DNA of 23,220 nt from a virus (Duplodnaviria > Heunggongvirae > Uroviricota > Caudoviricetes): positions 89,802-113,021 of IMG/VR virus record IMGVR_UViG_2582581315_000004, one strand, 5' to 3'. Every line of letters begins with the position of its first letter. Within the stretch, counting starts at the first letter, position 1. Positions 2 through 21,145 of the stretch are shown here, piece after piece. A program made the translations under genes and the position numbers. The notes under the pieces were generated by a model, which saw only the letters and a program-made list of their open reading frames with translations, ran no database searches and had not been told where the DNA came from.

Positions 2-1870
2 TATAACGAGACGCTTGGCTACGGCCGCTTCACCAACGGTCCGGTAAATCTCACGCAGATGAACCTTGACGAGGTACTTGCACTTCAGAGCAAGATGCTT
101 GATCAAACCAGGGCGCTTCCTTCAACTGATCCTCTCTACAATTCCTCCGCGGTCGGCCGCTACCAGATCACCAGCGAAACGCTGCGCGATATGATGAAGC
201 AGTTGAACCTCTCTGGAGACACTGTCTTCAATCAGGAAACGCAGGACAGGATTGCGCAGCAGATCATTCGCTCGACCGGCGGTGACGCATCGAAACTGCG
301 CGGTCGGTGGCCAAGTCTCAACAACACCCCCAACGATGTTGTCGACGCAGCTTCGAAGCAGACCTTGACAAACCTTCCGCGCATGGACGTGTCCACGCAA
401 AAGTGGATCGACGGCCTGAAGGATCTCGACCTCCAAGGGAAGGTGAAGTCGCTGAACGAGTTCGACCAGCAGGTCCTTCAGACCGGCCAGTCGATGGGCA
501 CGACCAAGGAGGAGATGCTCCAGTACATCGCGGCCGTGACATCCGGTGACATCGACAAGATCCCGGATAAATTCAAGGTCATCCAAGATAGCCTGAAGAT
601 GGGCATCGACAACGGATTTGGGCGGCAGCTCAAGGATCTCCGCGATTCCGGAGGCCAGAAGATTCTTACGGATCTTCAGCAGCAGGTTATCCAGACCGCA
701 AAGTCCTTTGGCGCGACGGAGCCCGAGATAAAGGCTTACGTCCAGGCACTGACGGACGGGCGACTGGATCAAATTCCGGATAAATTCAAGAAGATACAGG
801 ACGCTCTTCAGATCGGGATTGATAGTGAGTTTTCGAAGCAGCTGAAGCAGCTCTCAGACAATGAGTCTATTAAATTCCTATCTGATCTTCAGCAGAAGGT
901 CGTCGAAACTGCTCGTCAGTTTGGGCTCTCCGAGCCGGAGATCCGGGCTTATGTGGCCGCCGTCTCAGACAACCGCCTGGATCAGGTTCCAGCCAAATTC
1001 CAGGCGATAACTGATCAGCTCCAGAAGACTGCCGAAAATGACCATTTGATTCAATTCACCGACGGCCTCGCGGACTCAATCGGCAGCCTGTTCACTGATA
1101 TGGCAAATGGCGACGATGCTTTCGGCAATCTCATCAAGAACCTTGAGAAGTTGGTTGTCCAAATTCTGATAGTCGAGCCAATCGTCGCGAGCCTCAAGGC
1201 AAGCTTCCGGAATCTCGCAGGAGGAGTCAGCAGCAGCGCTGGTTTCGATATTGGCGCGACGAGCACCAGCTCCGGTGGGATCATCAGCTCTATTTTCGGC
1301 AGCAAGGGCCTCTTCGGCGGCATCCTTGGCCTGGCCGATGGTGGACCGTCTGACATCGTGGATCAGAAGGCTGGGGCTGTACGCGGACCTGGCGGCCCGC
1401 GCTCCGACAAGAAGCTCGTCTATCTTTCGAACGGGGAATATGTCTTCGACGCGGAAGCCACCAAGAACGCCGGCGTCGAGCAGCTGCAAATGCTCCAGCA
1501 ATATCTGAAGCGTGGGAAGCTGAGCGATCTCCTTCGGCCGAAGTCACAGAAAATGGCTGATGGTGGAGCTGTTCAAGGGGGTGGGGGGACTGTACCGTCA
1601 TCGCAATATCTTCCTGGAAATCAGAAAATGGTGGCGGCGAACGGCAACAATATGGCCTCGTCGCTTGCTCGTGCACCGCGGGCCAAGGCAGCAGACAACC
1701 TCCACATTTCGTTCGAAACGAAGGTCTCTGAGGATGGCACGCTGCAAACTTACGTCGCCGGTGTGGCAAGAACTGAGAGTGCGTCCAGCGTCAAGTCGGG
1801 AATTTCCCAGTATGACCGCACGCTGCCGGACCGAATGGATCAGATCAAGCGTTCACCAAAGAAACGTTAG
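2..1870 (+). CDS. Tail tape measure protein, C-terminal part (5'-truncated by the window), with a lysozyme-like domain
   Basis: The frame is open from base 2 (YNETLGYGRFTNGPVNLTQM...), so the ATG at 59 is internal. It contains a lysozyme-like SSAVGRYQI..TL...F...TQD motif and the typical tape-measure C-terminal GPGGPRSD...LSNGEYV..A.A motif, and lies directly upstream of the tail-tip genes. Confidence 0.88.
   Translation, partial: YNETLGYGRFTNGPVNLTQMNLDEVLALQSKMLDQTRALPSTDPLYNSSAVGRYQITSETLRDMMKQLNLSGDTVFNQETQDRIAQQIIRSTGGDASKLRGRWPSLNNTPNDVVDAASKQTLTNLPRMDVSTQKWIDGLKDLDLQGKVKSLNEFDQQVLQTGQSMGTTKEEMLQYIAAVTSGDIDKIPDKFKVIQDSLKMGIDNGFGRQLKDLRDSGGQKILTDLQQQVIQTAKSFGATEPEIKAYVQALTDGRLDQIPDKFKKIQDALQIGIDSEFSKQLKQLSDNESIKFLSDLQQKVVETARQFGLSEPEIRAYVAAVSDNRLDQVPAKFQAITDQLQKTAENDHLIQFTDGLADSIGSLFTDMANGDDAFGNLIKNLEKLVVQILIVEPIVASLKASFRNLAGGVSSSAGFDIGATSTSSGGIISSIFGSKGLFGGILGLADGGPSDIVDQKAGAVRGPGGPRSDKKLVYLSNGEYVFDAEATKNAGVEQLQMLQQYLKRGKLSDLLRPKSQKMADGGAVQGGGGTVPSSQYLPGNQKMVAANGNNMASSLARAPRAKAADNLHISFETKVSEDGTLQTYVAGVARTESASSVKSGISQYDRTLPDRMDQIKRSPKKR
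467..1030 (+). repeat. About 2.6 tandem copies of a 213-bp (71-aa) repeat inside the tape measure gene
   Basis: QQVLQT/QQVIQT/QKVVET start at 467/680/893. PDKF/PDKF/PAKF codons fall at 563/776/989. gatcttcagcag occurs at 671 and 884. All spacings are 213. Confidence 0.92.
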
Positions 1871-3654: not shown

Positions 3655-6348
3655 ATGAACTTCAAAAAACTGCTGCTTGCCACGACTGCGTTGTTTGCGG
3701 CGTCGACTTCGGCTGCCCATGCGGAACCAGTTACGATTGCCCTTTTCGGCGCGGCGTTCGCTGCGACAACGGCCGGCTCACTGGTATCGATTGGTTTCGG
3801 TCTTGCGATCACTTATGGCCTTTCGCTTCTCCAAAAGGCTTCATCGAGTAGCTCCGCATCTCAGGGCGGCACGCAAGTCGACGTCCAGATGGGTGATGAC
3901 AAACCCATCAGCTTCATCGCCGGCAAATTCGCCACGGCCGGTAAGCGCAAATATAGCGGCACCTGGGGTGACGGGGGGAAGACGCCGAACGCCTTCTTTG
4001 TCGACGTCATCGAAATTGGGAGCATTCCGAATAACGCCGGATCGGCGGGGATCACCAGTGTCTGGATCGATGATCAGTTGTGCGGTGTCCGTTGGGATGA
4101 ACCTCACCCTGACGGCCGCGGTTATCCGGTGGTCGAATATCGCGAAAGTGACGGGAAGGATCATCTTTGGCTCAAATTCCTTGATGGCAGGCAGACTTCG
4201 GTCGACCCATATTTGACCAGCAAGTTCGGCACGAACGCTGATCGCCCCTGGACAGGCGACATGGTCGGCTTTGGGTGCCAGGTCGTGATTTTGACCGCGC
4301 GCTACGACACCGATCTTTTCAGCGGCATCCCGCAGGGGCTCTACGAACCTCACTCGGTTCCGCTTTACGATGTCCGGAAGGACTCTTCCAACGGCGGCAG
4401 CGGTACTCATCGGTGGACCGATCCGGCGAGCTGGGAGCCTACGCAAAATCCAGCCGTGATAATGTACAACATCATTCGCGGCATCTATTACAATGGCGAG
4501 TGGGTTTACGGCGGCCAGAACCTCGCAGCGTTCCGCCTTCCTCCATCGAGTTGGATGGCTGCCGCCAACGCCTGCGATGCGCTTGTAACATTGGCCGACG
4601 GCTCTCAGGAGCCGGCATATCGGGCCGGCTACGAGTTCCATGGCGATGAGAAACCCGCCGACGCCGTCGAGAAGTTGCGCGCAGCCTGCAATGGGCGCCT
4701 TGCCGAAGTCGGAGGCATCTTCAAGCTTTTGGTCGGTGCACCGGGCGGCGCCGTCTATGGGTTCACCGATCAGGACATCATCGTCACTGAATCGCAGAGT
4801 CTCGCTCCATTCCCGACGCTCGACGACACCGTCAATGCGATCGAGGCAACCTATCCTGAGCCGGCCGAGAAATGGGCATCTAAAGACGCTCCTGGTCGAT
4901 ATTCGGATGTCCTTGAGGCTGAGGATGGGGGCCGCCGCCTGCCGGCCAGCGTGAGCTTCGAGGCGGCGCCGTTTGGCAATCAGGTGCAGCGCCTGATGAC
5001 CGCGATGGTGCAGGAAGAGCGCCGCTTCCGCATTCATCAGTTCTATCTGCCGCCGGACGCCTATGCGCTTGAGCCGAACGATGTCGTCACGTGGAGCTCA
5101 GACCAAAATGGGTACACGAACAAGAAATTTCTTGTCACGAATATTACTGGCCAGCGCACCTTCAACCAGCTCGTCTCGCTAAAGGAAATCGATCCTTCAG
5201 ACTACGACTGGAACAGCAGCATGCAGCTGCCCACGTCGATCGGCTGGATCGGGCCAATTACAGCGCCGTCGCAGCCGTTATATGGCTGGACGGTAGAGCC
5301 GGCCGCAATCAACAGTAGCGACGGATCGCCATGGCGGCCATCAATCAAGGTCAGCTGCGCTCCTGACCAGGACGACGTGAGCAATGTGTGGGTGCAAGTG
5401 CGCCTCGCAGCGACAGGCGATATCGTCTTCGACAGCGACGCGACGCGATATGAATCGCCTTATAGCTGGATCATCAATGCCAGCTTCAAATCGAACACGA
5501 ACTATCAGGCCCGCGGCAAGTTCATACCGATCAGTAGCCGTTCCACCGACTGGTCGGAATGGCTACCCGTAACTACGCCGACGGTCTTGATCGGTGCGGA
5601 CGAGATCTATCTCGACGGCGTTGTCAGTGAGCTGCAGAATTTCGTCTCTGACGCAACCGTCTGGATCCGCGACGGCACTCGACAGTCGCTCATGGACGCA
5701 CAGCGCCTCGCTCGGCTTGGTCAAGACCAAGACATGGGCAACTTCACGGACCGCCAGCAGATGCGCCGGGAGCTTGCCAGTGTGACGGCGCAGATTACTG
5801 CCAGTTACATCGAGACCATTACCGTCGCAACAGGCCCAAACTCAGCCATAGTCCAGCGTCTGGAAGAACTTTCAGCGACTATTCCCAACTTGGCAACCGT
5901 TGCTGCGCTCAATCTGTTGTCGGCACATGTCGACACAGTTGAAGGTGAAGTCCAGGCAAATGCCGACGCCATCACGTCGCTGACCGCTCAAGTTGGCGAT
6001 GTGAGCGCAAGTGCAAATTTCAGGATGAGCGTCTATGCCGCCCCTTCTGGATATAGCTCACGCATCGGCATGGAAGCGCGAGGGGGTAGTGCTGGGGCCT
6101 ATCGGTCAGCGTCTTTGTTTATTGACGTCCCAAGCAGCACGAGTGACCCCACTCGCGTATCGATCAATGCTGACCAGTTCTCCATTACAAATGGTGGCAG
6201 CGAGGGGCAGCCGTTTATCTTTCAGAGCGGTGTGCTGACCTTGAATGCGGCGAATATCGGCACGGTAACGGCCGGTCTGATCAATGGTGGCGCCGGCTCA
6301 AAGATGGTTATCGACATCACAAACGGCGTCCTCACGGTCTCGGACTGA
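3655..6348 (+). CDS. Tail tip hub / host-specificity protein (gpJ-like)
   Basis: 897 aa. It has NPA.IMYNIIRG, W.AAANACD and LRAACNGRL..VGG motifs, a late coiled-coil segment and a C-terminal INADQF..F beta-rich region typical of J-like proteins. Confidence 0.85.
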   Translation: MNFKKLLLATTALFAASTSAAHAEPVTIALFGAAFAATTAGSLVSIGFGLAITYGLSLLQKASSSSSASQGGTQVDVQMGDDKPISFIAGKFATAGKRKYSGTWGDGGKTPNAFFVDVIEIGSIPNNAGSAGITSVWIDDQLCGVRWDEPHPDGRGYPVVEYRESDGKDHLWLKFLDGRQTSVDPYLTSKFGTNADRPWTGDMVGFGCQVVILTARYDTDLFSGIPQGLYEPHSVPLYDVRKDSSNGGSGTHRWTDPASWEPTQNPAVIMYNIIRGIYYNGEWVYGGQNLAAFRLPPSSWMAAANACDALVTLADGSQEPAYRAGYEFHGDEKPADAVEKLRAACNGRLAEVGGIFKLLVGAPGGAVYGFTDQDIIVTESQSLAPFPTLDDTVNAIEATYPEPAEKWASKDAPGRYSDVLEAEDGGRRLPASVSFEAAPFGNQVQRLMTAMVQEERRFRIHQFYLPPDAYALEPNDVVTWSSDQNGYTNKKFLVTNITGQRTFNQLVSLKEIDPSDYDWNSSMQLPTSIGWIGPITAPSQPLYGWTVEPAAINSSDGSPWRPSIKVSCAPDQDDVSNVWVQVRLAATGDIVFDSDATRYESPYSWIINASFKSNTNYQARGKFIPISSRSTDWSEWLPVTTPTVLIGADEIYLDGVVSELQNFVSDATVWIRDGTRQSLMDAQRLARLGQDQDMGNFTDRQQMRRELASVTAQITASYIETITVATGPNSAIVQRLEELSATIPNLATVAALNLLSAHVDTVEGEVQANADAITSLTAQVGDVSASANFRMSVYAAPSGYSSRIGMEARGGSAGAYRSASLFIDVPSSTSDPTRVSINADQFSITNGGSEGQPFIFQSGVLTLNAANIGTVTAGLINGGAGSKMVIDITNGVLTVSD

Positions 6349-7620: not shown

Positions 7621-7678
7621 TCGAAAAAGCGGCATGATTTTATAGCTGTGCTGCGACAGTTCTCATTGGATTGGATGC

Positions 7679-7927
7679 ATGGAAAAGAAACAGATTCCCG
7701 ATGGCGTTTTGATTGGCGAGCTTCGCGCCAGGCTCCAGTTTGCGGAAGAACGCAACTTGCTCTTGGCTACTGTTGCGAATGAGCTCGATGAAGAGCTGAA
7801 GGCGAATGAAGCGGCGCATGCTGCAGAAATGATCGAGCTAGCCAAGTCGCGAGATATGTATCGCGATGAATTGCTGGCCGCACAGCAAATGCTCGCACAA
7901 TACCCGAATACTCTGCCCGCGCCGTAA
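7679..7927 (+). CDS. Small coiled-coil hypothetical protein
   Basis: 82-aa helical, Glu/Ala/Leu-rich ORF co-oriented with the tail genes. Confidence 0.65.
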   Translation: MEKKQIPDGVLIGELRARLQFAEERNLLLATVANELDEELKANEAAHAAEMIELAKSRDMYRDELLAAQQMLAQYPNTLPAP

Positions 7928-8162
7928 GCTGGACAGGAAACTATCCCTTCGGCGAGGTCGCGCGGCAGAGCTGCGCACTTGCCGCTATCAATGAAACCAC
8001 CCCAGTCGGGGGAATGATCAGCTTGATGGTCGATGATCATCCGGACCGATCGCGCTCGCGCTTCAGGTGAAAGCCTGTCGGCCGCCTGCTGATGCGGCAC
8101 ATATCCGAAAACACGATCGACAAGCGCGATCCTTCGGAAATCACATATTTGGAGGTAAGCGA

Positions 8163-10853
8163 ATGGCGGTAGTTGTCCTACCCTCAACCTATAGGGATGG
8201 AACCGCGACCGTAGCCGCCAATGGCGTCACGGTGACCGGAACTGGTACGCTATGGACTAATTCTATCATTGCGGGCGACTTTTTCGGAACGCACAAGGGT
8301 TTCCCGATCCGCATTCTGTCCGTTGATAGCGACTCGCAGCTTACGCTTGCCTATGCGTGGCCGGGGGCCGCGCAGACGAATGCAGCCTACGAGATCATGC
8401 TTCAGAGCGACGTCGGTCGAATGCAGGAGACCTCGCGAGAGCTTCTGCAGAAGATGCAGAGCGGCAACCTCGACGCGCTCGCCGGCCTCAACGGACTGCC
8501 CGATACCATCCCGTACTTTTTGGGGCCGGGCGCCATGGGGCTGTATACAAAGCAGCAACTGACCAATGGCGCCAGGTTCGACGTTCAGGTGCCGGACATC
8601 GCCGGCCGCGCCGCTTACGATGCGCAGGCTGCTGGCTATGCGGTTCTCGTGTCCAACGTTGGTGATGGTCGAGCGGCGATCTATACGAAGAAGAGCCCGA
8701 CGTCTGGCGACTGGTCTACGGCTGCATACATTACTGGCCCAGTTGGTGCTACGGGTCCTGTTGGTATGAATTGGCGCAATGGGTGGAATGCTGCCAACAC
8801 CTACGCAATCAATGACGGCGTCTACTGGCTGGGATCGTCATGGATTGCTATCACTGCCGGCCTCGGTAGCACGAACGGCGCGCCAAGCATCGCCAACTCC
8901 GGCAATTGGCGGCAAATGACGCTCGGCTTTAATATCCTCGGGACATATAACCCTGCGACTACTTATTATCGCACGGACTCCGTTCTTTATAACGGCTCGA
9001 CGTGGCAGGTGCTTCCGAGCGTGGCCTCAACTGTTGGCAATGCGCCACCTAACCTCCCGACTACGAGCAATGCATGGTGGCAGCTGATCGCCCAAAAGGG
9101 CGCAGACGGGACCGGCGTCGGCGACATGCTCAAGGCCACGTATGATCCGACGAATATTGCCCTTGATGCGTTTAATCAGAACAACCACTATGGCAACGAT
9201 CCGTTTACCGTTGGCACGGTGGCTGCTCTTCAGGCGCTAGACACGACGAAGCACACGTGCGCATTTCTCGCCGTTATATCTGGGTCTAGGAACGGCCTAT
9301 TCATCTGGAGCCCCGGTGATTATTCCGCGAGGGTAGCCGCAGATACGGCTCAGGGCATTTTCATCAAGGCAAACGCCATCGCCGCTACTTCTGGGGCTTG
9401 GGTTAGAGCAGAGGTAGCCTTCTTTAGTAATTCATGGAAGGTCGGTTGGTTTGGTGTTAATCCCAACAATACACCGGTAAATAACACAACCAATCTAAAT
9501 GCGGCGCTGGCTCTTGCTGTCATGCAAGATAGTGCCATCGAGTTTCCTGCCGGTATACATCAGTTTAGCGCGAAAATCACGATATCTACCGCGTTCAACT
9601 TGGTGCTGTTCTCGAATGCAATCAAGGAGTGTGAGTTACAGTGGACCGCATCGAACGGCGGTATTGATCTAACGTTCACTGATCCATTACAGCCGCCCAC
9701 GATTAGGGGCCTTAACTTCACGACGACTATTGCGGGCGGCGGCACTGCGCTCAAGGTGACGGGCACTGCGCTTGCGTCTGCAACGCTTGCCGGTCCGCTA
9801 ATTGAGGACGTCGATTGCCGAGGCAAGACGGTTGCTAGCACCTATTGGACGCAGGGCATCTACCTTAAGCTCTGCTGGTATCCGCGAGTAATCAGGCCTG
9901 ACATTAAGGGGATGGACGATACCACATCGCCGTTCGACATGACGGAAGGCATCTATTGTGAAGATTGTCAGGCTCCGTTCATCCGCGACGTGACCATCTT
10001 CCATTGTGAGCACGCTATATACGCCACTGGCTCACTTCATGGCGAAGGTCTCAGCGTCATTGGCGGCGAAATTGTTGGCGTATCCGAGGGCATTAGATGG
10101 AATCTTGGTGCGGTTAAGCCCAGCATCGTCATATCTGACTTGCATATCAACGCTTATGTGAACTGCGTCAATCTAAACAACGTCTATCAGATAACCATTC
10201 ACGATTGCCTATTCTACAAGACGCATCTGTCGACGTCGAATTGGTATGGCGTGCAGCTCACGAATTGCGCGCAGGTCAATATTCACGATATGAACTTCTC
10301 TACGGCTGGCCTGATCGACACGACGCCGGGCGTTTCCACTCCAGTGGCGCTAGTCAATAGCCACGACTGCCGAATCACAAACTGCCTTGCATTCGGATGG
10401 TTGACGCCAAACTCATCCTTCGTCCTTCTGGCAAACTCGACTACGGCTGACAACGTCATGGATGGACTGACGATTGCCAACGATGGAAGCCGGTCGAACT
10501 TTGTAGGCTTTGCTGGCATTGTAAGCTCGCCGGGTCCAAACACCTTCCGCAACTGCGTTCCGGATGTTAACGCTCAGATGGCGAGCGGCGACACGACTCC
10601 AGATGTCGGAAACCTCTCGAGTCCAGTCCTTGAATATACCGGTGGCGCGGTATCTGTTACGACATTCGACAACCCCAAAACTGGACAGGAATTCACGCTG
10701 TTCTGCAACACCGGTTCGTCCGTCCTAACGCTTGTGAATAATGCCACCGGAACAGGTCTTATTGTAAAAGGGGGCAACTTCCTAATGCCAGCTGGATCAT
10801 GTGTGCATTTCAAGTATCACGGGAGCCTCTGGCGCGAGATGTGGCGTAGCTAA
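8163..10853 (+). CDS. Tailspike/tail fibre with a parallel beta-helix (pectin-lyase-like) domain; putative polysaccharide depolymerase
   Basis: GGAGG RBS at 8151 supports ATG 8163 (896 aa). It has an N-terminal virion-attachment region, a short collagen-like stretch, two W..TY..D.V...GS.W modules and a GDMLKATYDP motif. The beta-helix cap NTTNLNAAL...IEFPAG is followed by Asn/Ile/Cys-rich rungs. Confidence 0.85.
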   Translation: MAVVVLPSTYRDGTATVAANGVTVTGTGTLWTNSIIAGDFFGTHKGFPIRILSVDSDSQLTLAYAWPGAAQTNAAYEIMLQSDVGRMQETSRELLQKMQSGNLDALAGLNGLPDTIPYFLGPGAMGLYTKQQLTNGARFDVQVPDIAGRAAYDAQAAGYAVLVSNVGDGRAAIYTKKSPTSGDWSTAAYITGPVGATGPVGMNWRNGWNAANTYAINDGVYWLGSSWIAITAGLGSTNGAPSIANSGNWRQMTLGFNILGTYNPATTYYRTDSVLYNGSTWQVLPSVASTVGNAPPNLPTTSNAWWQLIAQKGADGTGVGDMLKATYDPTNIALDAFNQNNHYGNDPFTVGTVAALQALDTTKHTCAFLAVISGSRNGLFIWSPGDYSARVAADTAQGIFIKANAIAATSGAWVRAEVAFFSNSWKVGWFGVNPNNTPVNNTTNLNAALALAVMQDSAIEFPAGIHQFSAKITISTAFNLVLFSNAIKECELQWTASNGGIDLTFTDPLQPPTIRGLNFTTTIAGGGTALKVTGTALASATLAGPLIEDVDCRGKTVASTYWTQGIYLKLCWYPRVIRPDIKGMDDTTSPFDMTEGIYCEDCQAPFIRDVTIFHCEHAIYATGSLHGEGLSVIGGEIVGVSEGIRWNLGAVKPSIVISDLHINAYVNCVNLNNVYQITIHDCLFYKTHLSTSNWYGVQLTNCAQVNIHDMNFSTAGLIDTTPGVSTPVALVNSHDCRITNCLAFGWLTPNSSFVLLANSTTADNVMDGLTIANDGSRSNFVGFAGIVSSPGPNTFRNCVPDVNAQMASGDTTPDVGNLSSPVLEYTGGAVSVTTFDNPKTGQEFTLFCNTGSSVLTLVNNATGTGLIVKGGNFLMPAGSCVHFKYHGSLWREMWRS

Positions 10854-13224
10854 CGGCTGTGAGTATAACGGGAGGCCTTTTAGAAGCCTGGACGGATGGA
10901 ATCTTTTCAGGCTGCCTCCCCAGTGTCCCGCTTTCAAGGTCACTGAAGACCTCTGGCAATGACGTATGGTCCCCCTTGGAGTAATTCGCCTGCTTCGCGT
11001 GGAAGAGATACGCACTGGTGTCTGCGGCAAGCTTTTCAGCAGACCGAGCCCAAAACTTTGGATGTCTCCTTCCTAGCAGGCGAATAAGGTTCGCTTTGAC
11101 CGCCCACAATTTCTCTCTACCAGAGAGTTTCGCCCAAATTTCGGCACCGCTTTCGGTGCGCATCCATTTGGATATCGACGTTTGCTTTTCGAGGTTTTGC
11201 CAGATCTGGATTTTCCGGTAGTGGTCGAAGTCGGGCTGGCGAGAGTTGTCACCCAATACCTGCGCGACATAGGCCATGGTAACGATGTACTCTGAATTGT
11301 ATCTCGATCCAGGAAGCAGATATTTCGAAACGTCAGAGTAAATTTTGTCTTTGCCGACGTCGTGATTCAGCTTTTTGAAGCCATCGTCGACTTTCGCATT
11401 CATCATGGTGAATCCAAAAGAGACTTTCGAGACACCCTGAAAAGCCATGCGCCTCGGTTCCGCGACTACCTTTTTGGCGAGCTCAAATGCAAGGTTTGCA
11501 AAATAGTAGTCAGGAAACGGCGAGTGCATGACGTTTCCGCCAATTCGCATCCGGTCGAGGAGATCTTTGCTGCAGCAGAATGCTGGCATGTTGAACATGA
11601 ATGACCGGCGCATATGCAGCGAGTTGTCGACCGAGCGACGGATCGTGTCGGCATCGATGACGAATGGATAATCGGCATCCGCAAGGAAATCGGCCATTGG
11701 CAGGTCAGCGACATACCCCTCGCGTCTACCGGGAACGACGCCTGGATGCATAAACTGATAGAGGTTTGTGAAGATCAGGTCAGGCTCTTCGAAGCGCTCT
11801 ATCAGTTCATTCATGCGCTCAAAGTAACGAGGAGCAATCCCATCGTCATCGCCGACCATGGTCACGAAGTCGCCCTTGGCCATGTTGATGGCGTTGTTCC
11901 AGCTCTCTGTAACGGGCAGAAATTCGTCAGATCTCTCGGAGCGAATGCGTGGGTCGCCGAGTGCATTGATTGCGGCGGCAACCGGCTCCCTAGAGCAATT
12001 GTCGAAAACGACAATCTCCCAGTTGTCATAGTTTTGCTGAGTGACCGTCTTGATAGCGTCAAGCACAAGATCGAGGCGGTTGTGCGTGGGAATGGCGATG
12101 GAGAACAAGGGCTGGCGCTTGGCTTTCGGTGGCGCAGTGAATTCGAGGCACCGGTCAGCGAGCGATGTTCTGCGGCCGAACGAGGTACCATAAATCTCAA
12201 TGTCAGGCGTCAGGTCAGGCGCATACCCGCCCCAAGTCATAACGCGGTGGGCGTGCTTCTCAGGTTCGGAATATCGGTCATAGGCCGCCGTCTGATTGTC
12301 GACTGCGAGCAAGTTTGATTGATCGCCAGATCTGAATGCCCCGCATGTCGGCCATTGATCCAGCGAATAACCGACGCCATCCGCGCCGACCATGAGAAGC
12401 TCTTTGCCTTGGCGGAGCATTTTAAGCGAGATCCCGTCAGGGCCGCTTTCAAAGCGGCAGCACGCTATTTTGCTCTTGTCGATGAGTTGGACATCAAGAA
12501 AGTCCGCTCGGCTGACCATGAATGCAGTGCTGCGAAGGTGGGGGTTTGGGAAATGCGGGAAGTCTCGAAAGTTGGAGGGAAAGCCGCCGTCATAGCTGAT
12601 TGCATTCGCCCATACCGCTGGAAACTTTTTCTGTAGCTCCAAAATGGATGGCCTTTTGCCGATGGCATCCCCGATCATTCGTCTTAGACGCAGGTATTTT
12701 GATTGCGTCGCAAGGACAGTAACTCGCGATATAGGGTTGATGATCCATGCAAAGGAACGAGCCAAGGTGCTGTTGAGTTTTGCGGGAATGCCGACGGCCC
12801 ATGAGACGAAGCTGACGACCTTGAAAGAGCTGTATAAGCTCTCGAACGATCCGGAGGCGCCAACCATTCCAACTCCAGGCTTGCTCATATTGGCCCATAG
12901 TTTTGCGAGCCAATCATCTGATCGAACGAGCGTGAACGTGTTAAAGCAACAAATATATTCATTCTGAATTTCGAGAGCAGCTTCCCTATACGCATGGATG
13001 TCGAGCCCGATGTCGTCTTCGACGATAATGGTTTTATGGTCGATGCCGGTGAATATGGCACCAATGGCCGCCAATTCGCCAGGCTTGTTGAAGCCTTTAC
13101 AGATTATGTACAGGTCATGTTGCTCGCCGGCGGGATGTCGCCGATATGCCTCGGCGAATGCCTCAAAGGCCGGGAATCCTTCATTTAAGCGAGCAAGATA
13201 AACAACTGCGATTTTCTTCTGCAT
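10810..13224 (-). CDS. Two-domain glycosyltransferase: uncharacterised GT-like N-terminal domain plus GT2 domain (moron)
   Basis: C-terminal half has canonical GT2 motifs: SIAIPTHNR, EIVVFDNCS, WNNAINMAKGDFV and GDDDG. Start reassigned to ATG 13224 (AGGA upstream), giving 804 aa. Antisense to all flanking phage late genes. Confidence 0.88.
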   Translation of the reverse strand: MQKKIAVVYLARLNEGFPAFEAFAEAYRRHPAGEQHDLYIICKGFNKPGELAAIGAIFTGIDHKTIIVEDDIGLDIHAYREAALEIQNEYICCFNTFTLVRSDDWLAKLWANMSKPGVGMVGASGSFESLYSSFKVVSFVSWAVGIPAKLNSTLARSFAWIINPISRVTVLATQSKYLRLRRMIGDAIGKRPSILELQKKFPAVWANAISYDGGFPSNFRDFPHFPNPHLRSTAFMVSRADFLDVQLIDKSKIACCRFESGPDGISLKMLRQGKELLMVGADGVGYSLDQWPTCGAFRSGDQSNLLAVDNQTAAYDRYSEPEKHAHRVMTWGGYAPDLTPDIEIYGTSFGRRTSLADRCLEFTAPPKAKRQPLFSIAIPTHNRLDLVLDAIKTVTQQNYDNWEIVVFDNCSREPVAAAINALGDPRIRSERSDEFLPVTESWNNAINMAKGDFVTMVGDDDGIAPRYFERMNELIERFEEPDLIFTNLYQFMHPGVVPGRREGYVADLPMADFLADADYPFVIDADTIRRSVDNSLHMRRSFMFNMPAFCCSKDLLDRMRIGGNVMHSPFPDYYFANLAFELAKKVVAEPRRMAFQGVSKVSFGFTMMNAKVDDGFKKLNHDVGKDKIYSDVSKYLLPGSRYNSEYIVTMAYVAQVLGDNSRQPDFDHYRKIQIWQNLEKQTSISKWMRTESGAEIWAKLSGREKLWAVKANLIRLLGRRHPKFWARSAEKLAADTSAYLFHAKQANYSKGDHTSLPEVFSDLESGTLGRQPEKIPSVQASKRPPVILTAVSYATSRARGSRDT

Positions 13225-13480
13225 TCGTGCCAATTCCTGAAATCGCGCCCCCCGGCGACTTTGGATATTCGATAGTTGGCTCAACCTCTGGGTACCGAGG
13301 CCTAGCCCAGGCACCAAACCATGTATTCTCGTACAGGTAGGCCTTGAGAAGGTTAACCGATCTGCATCGGTTGATATCCTCTACCATTGACTGAATCTGG
13401 TGTGAAGTAGTCGCCATCAGTTGGCGACCGATACAATGCCCGTGTGTCGGGTCTGCAACTCCAAGGCATAGGAACCTTCC

Positions 13481-13789
13481 ATGAACCACGCGAAACTTTT
13501 CGCGGCGGTGCGCGCGCGCGTGCTCAATCGCTTGAAGCTGGCCTTCGATCGACTGGAGCATATCCCCGACGCCAAAGCCGTGCTCTTCCATGCATGGAGC
13601 GTCCGGCTTTGGATAGCCGCCTCCGCCATCATTCTCCTCGAGCCACTCTTCGAGTTGCTCGTCGATCTCTCTGACAGTTGGAACATTTACACGCGCGCTT
13701 GCCTGCGAGCTCTCGCCGGCATTTTCGGCCTGCTGGGCATCTGGGCGCGTGTCGTCAAACAAAAGGAACTGCAAGATGCCGATAAATAA
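13481..13789 (+). CDS. Putative holin-like membrane protein
   Basis: 102 aa with a HAWSVRLW motif, two hydrophobic segments and a basic C-tail. It overlaps the lysozyme start. The exact start is uncertain. Confidence 0.65.
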   Translation: MNHAKLFAAVRARVLNRLKLAFDRLEHIPDAKAVLFHAWSVRLWIAASAIILLEPLFELLVDLSDSWNIYTRACLRALAGIFGLLGIWARVVKQKELQDADK

Positions 13790-14357
13790 GATTGTCGCCA
13801 CAAAGCGCGGCAAGGCGCTGGTTGGCTCGGTAGTCGCCGCAGCTGTCGCCGGCATGGTCGCCATTTTTCCGGGTCAGGCGCCCGTTCATGACGACACTGC
13901 ACTTGCCATTAAGATCTTACAGCCGTGGGAAGGCAGAAAGCTTGTCGCCTATCTAGACACCCTGCCAACCAAGCCAGTTTACACCATCTGCGATGGCGAT
14001 ACCGACAACGTACGCAAGGGCATGGTTGAGACGGACGCCGGCTGTGATGCTCGCCTCGCTAAGAAGATGGAAAAGGACTATCGGCCGCATCTCGTGAAGT
14101 GCGTCGCTGATTGGGACAAGAAGCCGCTCAGTTGGCGCGGCTCGATGCTGACGCTTTCGTGGAATGTTGGCGTGGGCGCAACATGCAATTCGACGGCGGT
14201 TCGCCTGGCTCGTGAAGGCAAATATCGCGAAAGCTGTGAAGCGGCCACAGCATTCAACAAGGCCGGTGGTCGTGTGCTCAAGGGACTGGTCAACCGCCGC
14301 GAGATGGGCGACGCGCAGCGCGAGGGCGAGGCCGAAATCTGTGTGAGCGGCCTATGA
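13776..14357 (+). CDS. GH24 lysozyme (endolysin) with an N-terminal SAR-like anchor
   Basis: WEG....AY.D...TIC.G.T catalytic region, WNVGVGA.C.ST and GLVNRR motifs. The N-terminus is basic and followed by a Gly/Ala/Val-rich segment (ALVGSVVAAAVAGMVAIF). Confidence 0.92.
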   Translation: MPINKIVATKRGKALVGSVVAAAVAGMVAIFPGQAPVHDDTALAIKILQPWEGRKLVAYLDTLPTKPVYTICDGDTDNVRKGMVETDAGCDARLAKKMEKDYRPHLVKCVADWDKKPLSWRGSMLTLSWNVGVGATCNSTAVRLAREGKYRESCEAATAFNKAGGRVLKGLVNRREMGDAQREGEAEICVSGL

Positions 14358-14854
14358 GCGCCGTCGTCGCAGTCTTGTCCTCGATCGCCTCTTGGATGAT
14401 CAAGACCTTCGGAGTCGCCGGCTGCGCGCTGGCGATCGTCCTCGTCTATTACAACGGCCTTCCATTCCTCAATCGCTATCCTTGGCTGGCAAATGTGCCC
14501 GTCATTGGCCAATTCGCCGTCGGGCACGTCGAGACGTATGCCGTCGACCAAGTGAAGCTCGCCACGGCCAAGCAGACGGCTATCTGTGATGCCAAATTGG
14601 AGAAGCTGGTTTCCGGAACTGAGCTCGCCGCGGCAACCGCCCGCGCCGACTATCTGCAGCAGCAATTGACAAGGGCTCAAGCCCTTCGCGAGCAGGCTGA
14701 CAAACAGGCAGCCGACTTGGACACTCAGGCACAGGAAGCACAAAATGCGCTGGATCAAAAACTCGCTGCAGACAGGGGCGGCGATGATCGCGCTCGCTGG
14801 TCTGCCTCTGACATCATGTGGATCGACAGCCAATTTCCGAGATCTGGAAAATAG
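14354..14854 (+). CDS. Rz-like inner-membrane spanin
   Basis: N-terminal transmembrane segment and a long coiled-coil, located directly after the lysozyme (ATGA overlap). Confidence 0.72.
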   Translation: MSAVVAVLSSIASWMIKTFGVAGCALAIVLVYYNGLPFLNRYPWLANVPVIGQFAVGHVETYAVDQVKLATAKQTAICDAKLEKLVSGTELAAATARADYLQQQLTRAQALREQADKQAADLDTQAQEAQNALDQKLAADRGGDDRARWSASDIMWIDSQFPRSGK

Positions 14855-15083
14855 AGCGAACGCCGCGGCCGCGGCAAAGGCGACGATTGAGACGAAACCT
14901 GTGTTCCCCGATCTGCCGGCGAAATGCCGTCTGAAGATGGCCCGGGTTCGCTCTCAGGTCGGAGGGCTTTCCAGCCACGACATCGTGCAATGGAATATCA
15001 ATGCCGATGCGCAGGATTCAAGGACTCTATTCTGCGCCGATTTCTATCAGACGGCGACGGGCACGGGAGGATCAAAATCTTGA
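14745..15083 (+). CDS. Rz1-like outer-membrane lipoprotein spanin
   Basis: Lipobox LTS-C after a basic/hydrophobic leader, Pro-containing mature part, and a 110-bp overlap with the Rz-like gene in the +1 frame. Confidence 0.75.
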   Translation: MRWIKNSLQTGAAMIALAGLPLTSCGSTANFRDLENRANAAAAAKATIETKPVFPDLPAKCRLKMARVRSQVGGLSSHDIVQWNINADAQDSRTLFCADFYQTATGTGGSKS

Positions 15084-18806: not shown

Positions 18807-18827
18807 TCGTTTTGAGAAAGAGTCAAG
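18799..18827 (-). promoter_or_regulatory. Putative sigma70 promoter of the accessory operon
   Basis: Minus strand CTTGAC (18827-18822, the rhizobial -35 consensus), N17, then a weak -10 ACATTT (18804-18799). Confidence 0.6.
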
Positions 18828-20022
18828 AGGCAGCTATGGGCATCGAATTTCTGGAAGGGCGCCGTCTTTGCCCGCTGTTCTTTCTGAGCTTTGCCGAAGA
18901 ATGCTCGATCGGTGGAGCTTCGTCTTTGATTTTCTTCAGCCAATGCCAATCGGCGTACTTGTCCCCGATTTGACGAATGTGGGTGTAGCGTTTCAGGCTC
19001 GTCCAGGAACGATGGCCAGAGACCGTGGCGGCGCGGGGAATACTCCAACCAAGCTCAAAGAGGCGCGAGATGCCGTCATGGCGCAAGTCGTGAAAATGAA
19101 GATCTTCGATCCCCAGTAGTTTGCAGTTGGTGGTGAAGTTTGATGAGATGGTGCCTGGGTTATAGGGGAATATTTCAGGAGCAATCCTCGGCATTGAATC
19201 GATAACTAGGAGAGCTTCGGGGGGGAGGGTGCACCGTACGTCGTTCCCGACCTTTTGTCCTGGATGCTTCATATCCCGAACCAAAATTTCCGAATTTTCG
19301 CGATCCAGATCGTCCCACCTGATCGTGGTGATCTCCTCCTGCCTGCGGGTGGAGAAGATCCCGAACAAAATTATCTTGTGCATCGGCGACGCCTCGAGCG
19401 TGCGGGTGCTTCGCTCGCGGAAGAAGGTAAGGAGGATCTCGAGCTCCGGCAATGTCGGGCGCCTGTCTCGCTCAGCGCTCGTGCTTGTGATCCCTAAGCG
19501 CCTTGTGACTTTCGCGGCGTCTTTGAAGGCTTGCTCATCGAGTTGGTATCCCCACATCGGTCTGGCGATCGCAAAGACCGACCCGAGGTGCGACATATAG
19601 TTGCCGACCGTTTGAGGTTGGCGCCCAACACGCTCCTCGTCGTCATGCTGCCATCCCGCAAAGAGATCCTTGGCAAAGCTGGTTATGTCGGCGCTGGTGA
19701 TGGCTGCGCAGCGCATAGAGCCAAGCTCATGCTTCTTGATCACGTTCAACACCTGCGCCTTCGTCTTGCCGAAGTCCTTCACCGACTCCTTTGTGTATTG
19801 GTCGATCGCTTCCGCGAGTGTCACGTCGGGTTGCTGCAATCGGTCCAAGGCGCCTGGCTCTTCGAGGGCAGCCTCTCTCTTCTTCAGCCACGATTTTGCC
19901 ACCGGCTTACGGTCGAAAGTTTGAGCCTCGGTATGAACGACCTTACCATCTCGCTTTATTCTGATTTGCGCTGTATAAGATTTTGTCCCGTTCTTTCGGG
20001 TTCTCTCTGATATGGTGCCCAT
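18823..20022 (-). CDS. int: Tyrosine integrase, dusA-associated type
   Basis: Catalytic motifs STRRQEE (R), HFHDLRH (H-x-x-R), SGHRSW (H) and LKRYTH (Y); N-terminal arm-binding-like YTAQIRIK. Start reassigned to ATG 20022 (399 aa). Divergent from dusA. Confidence 0.95.
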   Translation of the reverse strand: MGTISERTRKNGTKSYTAQIRIKRDGKVVHTEAQTFDRKPVAKSWLKKREAALEEPGALDRLQQPDVTLAEAIDQYTKESVKDFGKTKAQVLNVIKKHELGSMRCAAITSADITSFAKDLFAGWQHDDEERVGRQPQTVGNYMSHLGSVFAIARPMWGYQLDEQAFKDAAKVTRRLGITSTSAERDRRPTLPELEILLTFFRERSTRTLEASPMHKIILFGIFSTRRQEEITTIRWDDLDRENSEILVRDMKHPGQKVGNDVRCTLPPEALLVIDSMPRIAPEIFPYNPGTISSNFTTNCKLLGIEDLHFHDLRHDGISRLFELGWSIPRAATVSGHRSWTSLKRYTHIRQIGDKYADWHWLKKIKDEAPPIEHSSAKLRKNSGQRRRPSRNSMPIAAS

Positions 20023-20024
20023 CT

Positions 20025-20063
20025 GAGTGCTACAAAACTCCGCTCGAGTGCTACGCCGTAGCA
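20025..20063. repeat. GAGTGCTAC direct repeat (x2, 21-bp period) plus an inverted GTAGCA; putative integrase arm-type sites
   Basis: GAGTGCTAC at 20025 and 20046; TGCTAC-gcc-GTAGCA palindrome at 20049-20063. Confidence 0.65.
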
Positions 20064-20066
20064 ACA

Positions 20067-20095
20067 GGCATATTGGAATGGGCGCTAACGGTCAA
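20067..20095 (-). promoter_or_regulatory. Putative sigma70 promoter of the integrase
   Basis: Minus strand TTGACC (20095-20090), N17, TATGCC (20072-20067), 45 bp upstream of the ATG. Confidence 0.55.
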
Positions 20096-20166
20096 ATTCT
20101 TACGAGAATGTGACGATATAAATGGACTGGGTTCGTGGGTAATTCGTTGTATTCTCGCAAGAATTT
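20094..20166. repeat. 16-bp inverted repeat (15/16 match); each arm is an ATTCT-N4-AGAAT palindrome
   Basis: aaattcttacgagaat (20094-20109) versus attctcgcaagaattt (20151-20166). Confidence 0.8.
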
Positions 20167-21145
20167 ATTTGCCGTTGCACCCATGATCGACTGGACTGAC
20201 CGGCATTGCAGGTATCTGCACCGGCAGATCAGCCGCCATGCGCTGCTCTATACCGAGATGGTGGTGGCCGACGCGATCATTCACGGCCCGCGTGACCGTT
20301 TGCTCGGCCATGATGCGACCGAGCATCCAGTCGTCCTGCAGCTCGGCGGCTCCGATCCGGCCAAGCTTTCCGAGGCGCTGCGGATCGCGGAGCCTTATGG
20401 CTATGACGAGATCAATCTCAATGTCGGCTGCCCGTCCGACCGTGTGCAGTCCGGCACCTTCGGCGCCTGCCTGATGCTGACGCCGGAGACGGTGGCTGCC
20501 TGCATCGCCGCTATGAAGGCGATATCGAAAGCGCCAGTGACAGTGAAATGCCGCATTGGCGTCGATGAGCAGGAGCCGGAAGAGGCGCTGCCGGAGCTGA
20601 TGACGCGCGTGCTCGATGCTGGTGCTGACGCGATCTGGATTCATGCGCGCAAGGCCTGGCTGAAGGGCTTGTCGCCGAAAGAGAACCGCGAGATCCCGCC
20701 GCTGGATTACGATATCGTCTATCGCATGAAACAGCGTTGGCCTGAGGTCTTCATCGGCATCAATGGCGGCATCCAGACGCTGGACCAGGCCGAGGCGCAT
20801 CTCGCCCATGTCGACGGTGTCATGCTCGGCCGCGCCGCCTATCAGAATGCCGCCATTCTGGCAGACGTCGACCACCGTTTCTTTGGCGAACCGGCCGCCG
20901 AGGCTGATTGGAACGACCTGCGTGACCGGATGATGGCCTATGCCGAACGTCATATCGCCGATGGCGGCCGCTTGCATCATGTTGCCCGCCACATGGTCGG
21001 CCTGTTTGCCGGCTTACCGGGCTCGCGCCGCTATCGCCAGATCCTTTCCACCGACGCCAACAAGCCTGGCGCGGGGCCAGAGGTGATCGCGGCGGCTTTC
21101 GCTGCGGTGGATTTTGCGGGTGAGGGTGAGCGGGCGAGTGCTTGA
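20135..21145 (+). CDS. dusA: tRNA-dihydrouridine(20/20a) synthase A
   Basis: FAVAPMIDWTDRHCR, LQLGGSDP, EINLNVGCPS, VTVKCRIG, NGGI and GVMLGRAAY motifs. The start codon is uncertain (GTG 20135 or TTG 20147). Confidence 0.96.
   Translation: MGNSLYSRKNLFAVAPMIDWTDRHCRYLHRQISRHALLYTEMVVADAIIHGPRDRLLGHDATEHPVVLQLGGSDPAKLSEALRIAEPYGYDEINLNVGCPSDRVQSGTFGACLMLTPETVAACIAAMKAISKAPVTVKCRIGVDEQEPEEALPELMTRVLDAGADAIWIHARKAWLKGLSPKENREIPPLDYDIVYRMKQRWPEVFIGINGGIQTLDQAEAHLAHVDGVMLGRAAYQNAAILADVDHRFFGEPAAEADWNDLRDRMMAYAERHIADGGRLHHVARHMVGLFAGLPGSRRYRQILSTDANKPGAGPEVIAAAFAAVDFAGEGERASA

Follow-up and report, generated by a model that had tools for sequence, protein, structure and literature searches.

A prophage-borne two-domain glycosyltransferase beside a tailspike gene as a candidate for surface-glycan conversion in Rhizobium

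What does a glycosyltransferase (GT) gene do in the late region of a prophage, where it is read antisense to the tail and lysis genes on either side of it? The question is raised by a stretch of 23,220 nucleotides (the window) that forms the final 23 kb of a 113-kb IMG/VR provirus record, IMGVR_UViG_2582581315_000004. The prophage is one of Rhizobium, integrated at dusA, and between its fibre gene and its cassette of holin, endolysin and spanin genes lies a monocistronic, antisense GT2 gene that encodes 804 amino acids (aa). We suggest, with a probability of roughly 0.55, that the GT is a lysogenic-conversion enzyme, altering the O-antigen in the cytoplasm before export. The two genes that concern us most, and their parts, are as follows; pLDDT is the predicted local distance difference test score of the structure model and GC the fraction of guanine plus cytosine.

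8163-10853, plus strand: tail fibre/tailspike gene, ATG at 8163, 896 aa
8163-9152, plus strand: fibre anchor and shaft, residues 1-330, with PHROG tail-fibre matches on residues 1-130; GC 0.590
9153-10853, plus strand: predicted receptor-binding part of the fibre, a depolymerase-type beta-helix and a C-terminal beta-sandwich; GC 0.522
10810-13224, minus strand: GT2 gene, ATG at 13224, stop ending at 10810, 804 aa
12127-13224, minus strand: GT residues 1-366, a second GT-A-fold domain without a Pfam model
10903-12126, minus strand: GT residues 367-774, a canonical GT2 (GT-A) domain followed by a helical C-terminal region
10810-10902, minus strand: disordered GT tail, residues 775-804 and the stop, pLDDT below 50, not conserved

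The enzyme and its relatives

Residues 375-479 of the GT match Pfam Glycos_transf_2 (PF00535) with an expectation value (E) of 5e-18 and 66 bits against a cut-off of 23.3 bits, and the match was confirmed on the provirus record. In brief, the C-terminal domain carries a DDD motif at 459-461. In 46 homologues G458, D460 and D461 are invariant and D459 is nearly so, a finding that concerns the C-terminal domain alone. All 61 invariant positions of the family, DDD included, are intact in the window GT. Sequence matches for the domain include SpsA and K4CP, while NCBIfam holds no curated family for the GT and gave far-sub-threshold GT2 matches only. A 407-aa single-domain GT2 with 36% identity to window GT residues 374-674 is encoded beside the closest GT relative (L029:4138-5361, minus strand), and so the C-terminal module also occurs as a protein of its own.

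The highest 19-residue Kyte-Doolittle mean in the GT is only 1.2, and the protein is therefore taken to have no membrane segment. The original prediction, made from the sequence of this locus, was that of a single soluble enzyme encoded by one gene, and the analysis agrees with this.

The structure model has a mean pLDDT of 91.9. Searched as a whole with Foldseek, it gave the two-domain polymerases K4CP and LARGE1 as top matches, followed by RmlT and TarP. Residues 1-366, folded alone, reach a pLDDT of 94.7 and align in VIA-align with BcsA, hyaluronan synthase (HAS), WrtF, TarP, K4CP and SpsA at Z 14-15, with a root-mean-square deviation of 3.2-3.4 A over 173-183 residues. The protein is thus modelled with two GT modules, a GT-A domain in residues 1-366 and a GT2 domain in residues 367-600. 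Conserved residues of the N-terminal domain are D70, D75, E128, D309 and N310. A profile of this domain recovers 2263 representative clusters at E<=0.001, 1093 of them at E<=1e-30, in which it is often stand-alone (340-400 aa) or fused to other domains. Judged from these matches, it appears to be an autonomous, widespread and unnamed GT-A domain.

We found 67 full-length homologues of the GT, mostly of 750-830 aa, in Rhizobium, Mesorhizobium, Phyllobacterium, Rhodopseudomonas, Hyphomicrobium and metagenomes. Eight non-prophage loci were examined: those of R. leguminosarum, Rhizobium sp. LEGMi198b, Phyllobacterium, two metagenome-assembled genomes (MAGs) and three contigs from metagenomes or read assemblies, of which two are short. 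In all eight the homologue adjoins other glycosyltransferase, methyltransferase or sugar-nucleotide genes, and the loci are of the chromosomal polysaccharide type. Three of them (L012, L027 and L028) encode the ATP-binding cassette (ABC) transporter pair ABC2_membrane and ABC_tran, of Wzm/Wzt type, and five (L012, L025, L026, L028 and L029) encode deoxythymidine diphosphate (dTDP)-sugar genes of rml type or related nucleotidyltransferases. In R. tropici the O-antigen is made with soluble GT-A enzymes and Wzm/Wzt (PMC12595478). By its gene neighbourhoods, the GT family appears to belong to surface-polysaccharide loci, several of them of the ABC-transporter-dependent (Wzm/Wzt) O-antigen type.

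Among the homologues with examined context, the closest relatives of the window GT lie on chromosomal-type contigs and share 77% and 65% identity with it. In the GT tree the window GT groups with chromosomal-type contigs, and copies from two Mesorhizobium prophages form a separate, well-supported clade, which suggests at least two phage-associated lineages of the enzyme. The family is sporadic, since it was found in one of the 301 genomes sampled from the family around M. dulcispinae, that genome alone.

The same neighbourhoods bear on the idea that the enzyme is directed at the phage itself, being made in lytic growth to glycosylate phage DNA or virion proteins, or to remodel the envelope of the dying cell; glycosylation of virions or DNA had been named as an alternative in the original prediction. 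GTs with which phages hypermodify DNA do exist (preprint 10.1101/2023.12.21.572611). The window GT, however, runs opposite to the late operons for structural and lysis proteins, its homologues sit in non-phage polysaccharide loci with sugar-nucleotide genes, and in three cases with export genes, and no full-length homologue occurs among 50,697 deposited phage genomes. We regard a phage-directed role as very unlikely.

The slot behind the fibre gene

The remaining features of the prophage end, with open reading frame abbreviated as ORF, are these:

59-1870, plus strand: tape-measure gene
3655-6348, plus strand: J-like tail protein (PHROG 5616, E 2e-205)
between the J-like and fibre genes, plus strand: three small conserved ORFs
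13225-13480: divergent intergenic gap of 256 bp from GT start to holin start, the presumed GT promoter region
13481-15083, plus strand: the whole lysis cassette (holin, endolysin, i-spanin, o-spanin)
13481-13789, plus strand: holin-like ORF, 102 aa, two hydrophobic segments
13749-14357, plus strand: endolysin (Pfam Phage_lysozyme, E 2.8e-21)
14354-14854, plus strand: i-spanin-like ORF, 166 aa, membrane anchor and coiled coil
14745-15083, plus strand: o-spanin-like lipoprotein, 112 aa, lipobox LTSCG
between the lysis cassette and the integrase: SRAP operon
18823-20064, minus strand: integrase (Pfam Phage_integrase)
20135-21145, plus strand: host dusA (Pfam Dus), which with the integrase marks the prophage end (18823-21145)

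The DusA protein is 93% identical to that of Rhizobium species, and the host is therefore assigned to Rhizobium. The order of the lysis genes matches that of P22 genes 13-19-15-Rz1. A minus-strand ORF at 13181-13864 (227 aa) overlaps the GT start and was considered as a partner gene. It has no Pfam, PHROG or tblastn support, is antisense to the plausible holin (13481-13789) and the endolysin start, and is probably spurious. The GT is therefore treated as monocistronic with a 256-bp gap upstream. Another antisense ORF, of 174 aa (7663-8187, minus strand), spans the interval from the last of the small tail ORFs to the fibre gene, whose start it overlaps by 25 bp. It lacks a homologue in four related prophages and its PHROG match is weak (E 6e-4). 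It may be no gene at all or a further small piece of cargo.

Related prophages share the tail genes, with identities of 42-52% for J, 50-68% for the small ORFs and 34-70% for the fibre anchor. Three of them (L021, L022 and L024) carry the same tail genes without the GT. In L021 no antisense gene of at least 120 aa is present from fibre to lysozyme, and in L024 no large antisense gene follows the fibre, its lysis genes not having been located. In L022 an antisense Acyl_transf_3 gene occupies exactly the slot of the GT. The GT gene (GC 0.525) and the receptor-binding part of the fibre gene form one low-GC block of 4.1 kb, set between the anchor and the holin (GC 0.579). The GT gene is the only GT2 gene in the 113-kb provirus record, in which we found no AT3 gene either. 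An AGGA motif lies 10 nt upstream of the GT ATG. The absence of the GT from three syntenic relatives, its low GC and its orientation antisense to tail and lysis genes bear out the proposal that the GT is a moron.

The position itself was surveyed in 80 IMG/VR loci that encode the fibre anchor, of which the 76 with a complete fibre of more than 380 aa were scored. Identifiable antisense cargo follows the fibre in 19 of the 76, glycan-modifying in 15 and a porin in 4. The cargo types were:

Acyl_transf_3, with or without SGNH: 10 loci
TylF or MT24 methyltransferases: 3 loci
KpsC/S-like: 1 locus
two GT2 genes: 1 locus
Porin_2: 4 loci
GT99 gene: second cargo in one of the Acyl_transf_3 loci

By this survey, the position after the tail fibre gene is a general cargo slot in these alpha-proteobacterial prophages, loaded with surface-modifying genes.

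The four porin genes (L049:12841-14022, L059:10584-11732, L069:10660-11787 and L097:10636-11748, all on the minus strand; Porin_2, E 4.5e-107 for a representative) are of the alpha-proteobacterial outer-membrane type and lie shortly after the tail fibre gene. They could serve as receptor replacement or decoy. The GT99-family cargo (L058:12193-13755, minus strand) has a WbbB-type N-terminal domain of a 3-deoxy-D-manno-octulosonic acid (Kdo) transferase with E 3e-21, and the KpsC/KpsS-like cargo is a Capsule_synth gene (L100:10130-12214, minus strand). Both belong to ABC-transporter-type glycan pathways.

In the two Mesorhizobium prophages, a member of the same GT family lies antisense between a beta-helix tailspike and holin/lysozyme genes. 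That of Mesorhizobium amorphae (L003:7165-15644) is podovirus-like, with a T7 gp14-like protein nearby. Its glycan cassette, running from the tailspike-like gene to the holin region, encodes a GT10 fucosyltransferase (E 2e-37), a Methyltransf_24 protein with a coiled-coil tail, the 820-aa GT homologue and a sulfotransferase-like protein. In Mesorhizobium dulcispinae (L008:12570-15428) the 952-aa tailspike-like ORF opens with a 46-residue fragment of the terminase large subunit, and a second terminase fragment, of 228 aa, is encoded close by. Rearrangement and degradation of this prophage seem likely, yet its GT is intact.

A lone gene in such a slot might also be a neutral or decaying passenger, that is, a fragment that illegitimate recombination brought in from a host polysaccharide locus, beside the much-exchanged fibre end, and that has no phenotype in this host because it is silent, partnerless or acceptorless. 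The chromosomal setting of the closest relatives examined agrees with this, as do the partner GTs or methyltransferases that family members normally have nearby. In addition, a consensus scan detected no promoter, and the GT gene is a singleton in a collection of 15 billion proteins. On the other hand, the frame of 804 codons is intact with every invariant family residue kept, the same family is retained at the same position in the two Mesorhizobium prophages, and the enrichment of the slot in surface-modifying genes across relatives points to selection on such cargo. We therefore consider a mere passenger quite unlikely.

The tailspike and its relation to the enzyme

The fibre starts with MAVVVLPSTY, the consensus N-terminus of 19 homologues. 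Residues 1-323 are 49-54% identical to fibres of Rhizobium phages RHph_TM3_3_9, Y5A and others. The anchor is common to Rhizobium and Sinorhizobium phages at about 50% identity, and the C-terminal parts of these fibres differ; related anchors carry ConA-like lectin, chitin-binding, pyocin-knob, S74 peptidase and SGNH domains. In the window fibre, Pfam Phage_depo_C matches residues 827-891 with 26.1 bits (cut-off 25), and Beta_helix matches residues 596-781 just below its cut-off. In the Atlas model, residues 340-896 align with P22-tailspike-type and Phage_tail_beta clusters at template-modelling (TM) scores of 0.6-0.77, and pectate-lyase-like phage proteins are among the structural matches. 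As in P22 gp9, a beta-helix domain is thus modelled behind a phage-specific modular anchor, and a polysaccharide-degrading tailspike is a fair reading of the C-terminal part.

The tailspike-like protein that adjoins the GT homologue in M. dulcispinae shares 30% identity with the window fibre over 548 aa (window residues 373-896, E 2e-44). A tailspike pattern scan of IMG/VR and a sequence search of PDB with the tailspike gave no match. The closest relative of the C-terminal part, with 51-66% identity, was found in MAG G004 (L031:14002-15742, minus strand). This copy is split by a stop or frameshift, lacks the N-terminal anchor and lies among non-phage genes with no GT adjoining. On another contig, the same MAG carries the GT homologue within a polysaccharide locus of the chromosome.

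Fibre residues 352-431 (9216-9455) share 51% identity with the p023 tail fibre of Rhizobium phage 16-3 and with RHph_X2_24. At the sequence level, rhizobial phages have thus exchanged segments of their fibres in a mosaic fashion.

The receptor of phage 16-3 is a capsular K antigen, and the likeness to its fibre brings in another explanation. The GT may modify or make a surface glycan other than the O-antigen, such as a K-antigen capsule, an exopolysaccharide or a glycoprotein, and the main benefit may be ecological (plant interaction, desiccation or defence against other phages) and not self-exclusion. The KpsC/S-like capsule cargo found in the same slot fits this explanation, as do the two-GT-A enzymes K4CP and PmHS2, which make capsules. 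The family loci themselves point elsewhere: the transporter genes in three of them are ABC2_membrane and ABC_tran, as for Wzm/Wzt, and occur with rml-type genes, a layout that matches the Rhizobium O-antigen operon as described (PMC12595478). Genes of KpsMT, KpsE or KpsD type were not seen beside the homologues. On balance we find a different target glycan unlikely.

The tailspike and GT frames converge and share 10810-10853, that is 44 bp, by the ORF listing and translation. No terminator was found at the junction by consensus scan, and coordinates and scan thus agree with the arrangement as first described. A hairpin at approximately 10870-10920 (plus strand) lacks a U-tract, and its folding is not superior to that of shuffled sequence (z -1.14). 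On the fibre strand, the overlap encodes the C-terminus of the tailspike, which is conserved, with alignments to homologues extending as far as residue 896. On the GT strand, it is the last 14 codons of the 30-residue disordered tail. GT homologues end in 0 to approximately 55 unrelated residues after the conserved DLESG block. A physical interlock of tailspike and GT had been proposed from this overlap. We reject it as a functional feature because the GT tail involved is disordered and variable among homologues. From the alignments and the model, the overlap looks incidental, a by-product of the insertion join and not selected. At most, it might lead to transcriptional interference between late and cargo transcription.

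The two genes had also been thought to travel as a matched pair, which is not what the relatives indicate. In the two Mesorhizobium prophages the GTs are 81% identical and the adjoining beta-helices 21% identical, and among the homologues with examined context it is chromosomal copies that come closest to the window GT. Nor do tailspike type and cargo type co-vary in the 76 loci: of the 23 pairs with the same cargo, 2 had the same fibre C-terminal cluster (6.6% expected; permutation p=0.41), consistent with independence. Partly in favour of a pair, the receptor-binding part of the fibre gene and the GT gene make up a single low-GC block. Four other homologues of the window beta-helix were found, three of which adjoin a GT2 gene and the fourth of which comes from a genome with the GT family elsewhere, in a sample chosen partly through the GT. 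A metagenomic phage has a fibre that aligns to window residues 4-723 (29.5% identity), followed by two unrelated antisense GT2 genes. These cases hint at a link between the beta-helix family and GT2 cargo in a small sample partly chosen through the GT. The comparisons speak against a strict pairing of enzyme and tailspike.

Proposed function and comparison with known systems

We suggest that a dusA-integrated Rhizobium prophage acquired the gene as single-gene cargo from a GT family of surface-polysaccharide type. In the lysogen, it would be transcribed from the 256-bp upstream region, independently of the late operon. The enzyme would act at the inner membrane face on undecaprenyl-linked O-antigen or a similar glycan before Wzm/Wzt export, and may add a branch, a cap or a short new or second polymer. 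The exported glycan would then be a poorer substrate or receptor for the tailspikes of this phage and similar ones, with superinfection exclusion and protection of released virions as possible results. This reading agrees with the Rhizobium pathway and would account for a soluble enzyme as cargo instead of a gtr-type membrane trio. The original prediction that the GT rewrites the surface glycan is retained in this form. The moron status of the GT, the polysaccharide loci of its family, the surface-modifying cargo slot and a P22-like layout favour it, and the interlock and the matched pair are dropped.

Several observations weigh against conversion of the O-antigen. The region is contained in one DNA sequencing run and in no RNA run, and expression of the GT in the lysogen is inferred. 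No sigma-70-type promoter was found in 13225-13480 by consensus scan, and consensus scan and hairpin folding gave no recognisable GT promoter or terminator. Chromosomal copies of the family always have further GTs or methyltransferases around them, and in the Mesorhizobium prophages, too, a methyltransferase accompanies the GT; the lone prophage GT may thus be missing a partner or acceptor on which it depends. In the N-terminal domain N95-T96 stands after strand 4 in place of the usual DXD, so that this is only a putative catalytic domain. The analysis covered the provirus record of the host, and a Wzm/Wzt-made O-antigen in this strain is presumed. The 50,697 deposited phage genomes gave generic GT2-core matches only, and with no full-length homologue there, no cultured phage gives functional support. 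A search of IMG/VR for full-length homologues likewise gave generic GT2-core matches only.

The rhizobial O-antigen affects legume-host recognition. If the O-antigen is indeed rewritten by the prophage, both phage resistance and symbiotic performance of inoculant strains could be altered. The cargo slot after the tail fibre gene offers a simple way to mine surface-modifying genes, and the N-terminal domain, as a large GT-A family without a Pfam model, is worth biochemical study.

For the Wzy-type O-antigens of enteric bacteria there is ample documentation of serotype conversion by phages, in most cases with membrane enzymes. To our knowledge, there are very few examples of soluble cytoplasmic conversion of ABC-transporter-type O-antigens, and we found none reported for rhizobia. 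P22 resembles the window in layout, with tailspike gene 9 followed by convergent gtrC-gtrB-gtrA as antisense, O-antigen-modifying cargo in a temperate phage, and in the presumed purpose of altering the glycan used by the tailspike. The enzymes differ. P22 gtrABC encodes three membrane proteins that act with a lipid-linked sugar in the periplasm on a Wzy-type O-antigen, whereas the window has one soluble two-domain enzyme, whose homology to gtr is limited to the generic GT2 core of GtrB. The GtrA flippase, GtrB bactoprenol transferase and membrane GtrC that define gtrABC have no counterpart in this single gene without a membrane segment. The P22 genes have their own annotated promoter and terminator and a gap of 58 bp, in contrast to the 44-bp overlap without a detected terminator, and they lie next to attP, whereas the window GT lies between fibre and lysis genes.

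It had been stated that known conversion systems are all multi-gene or membrane-bound, which TarP (PMC9650247) and WbbY (PMC10629545), both single soluble enzymes, contradict. TarP is a prophage-encoded soluble GT-A (GT2) enzyme that acts on Staphylococcus aureus wall teichoic acid at the cytoplasmic side (PMC9650247). Its structure (PDB 6H1J) matches both window GT domains at approximately 12-15% identity. It has one catalytic domain of approximately 320 aa and acts on ribitol-phosphate teichoic acid in a Gram-positive host, whereas the window GT has two domains.

Two GT-A domains in one soluble or peripheral chain are also found in K4CP (chondroitin polymerase, PDB 2Z86), PmHS2 and LARGE1, top Foldseek matches over 640-780 columns. 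Identity to the window GT is 9-11%, and the whole-chain TM score is 0.2-0.3, low because the domain arrangement differs. Unlike in K4CP-type enzymes, the N-terminal domain of the window GT has no obvious DXD, and there is no evidence of alternating-sugar polymerisation. WrtF and other GTs of R. tropici CIAT 899 are soluble GT-A enzymes for Rhizobium O-antigen encoded in a wzm/wzt operon (PMC12595478). WrtF matches both window GT domains, but it is chromosomal, has a single domain of approximately 270 aa and shares approximately 11-17% identity with them. WrtF is reported to work without metal cations (PMC12595478), and it is a possible model for the DXD-less N-terminal domain by analogy.

The best functional analogy is WbbY of Klebsiella pneumoniae O1, a two-module polymerase encoded at an unlinked locus, of which an active copy is present in a Caudovirales genome (record BK049963.1). 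WbbY adds a new polymer onto an O-antigen of the ABC-transporter pathway (PMC10629545). Like the window GT, it is a single, soluble, phage-carried enzyme with two GT modules, the likeness being one of description. WbbY differs in having a pyruvyltransferase partner, WbbZ, and polymerase activity of the window GT is only presumed. Carried to its end, the analogy would make the GT a polymerase or capping enzyme of two modules that needs no partner and attaches a new glycan to a Wzm/Wzt-made Rhizobium O-antigen, much as WbbY converts Klebsiella O2a to O1. Susceptibility to phages and the O-antigen sensed by legumes would then both be switched by one phage gene, and the N-terminal domain would found a new GT-A family. 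We hold this extended version to be doubtful. Phage surface conversion itself is already known; what is new here is an enzyme type with two GT-A domains, from a family of surface-polysaccharide loci, in a rhizobial host and in a documented cargo slot.

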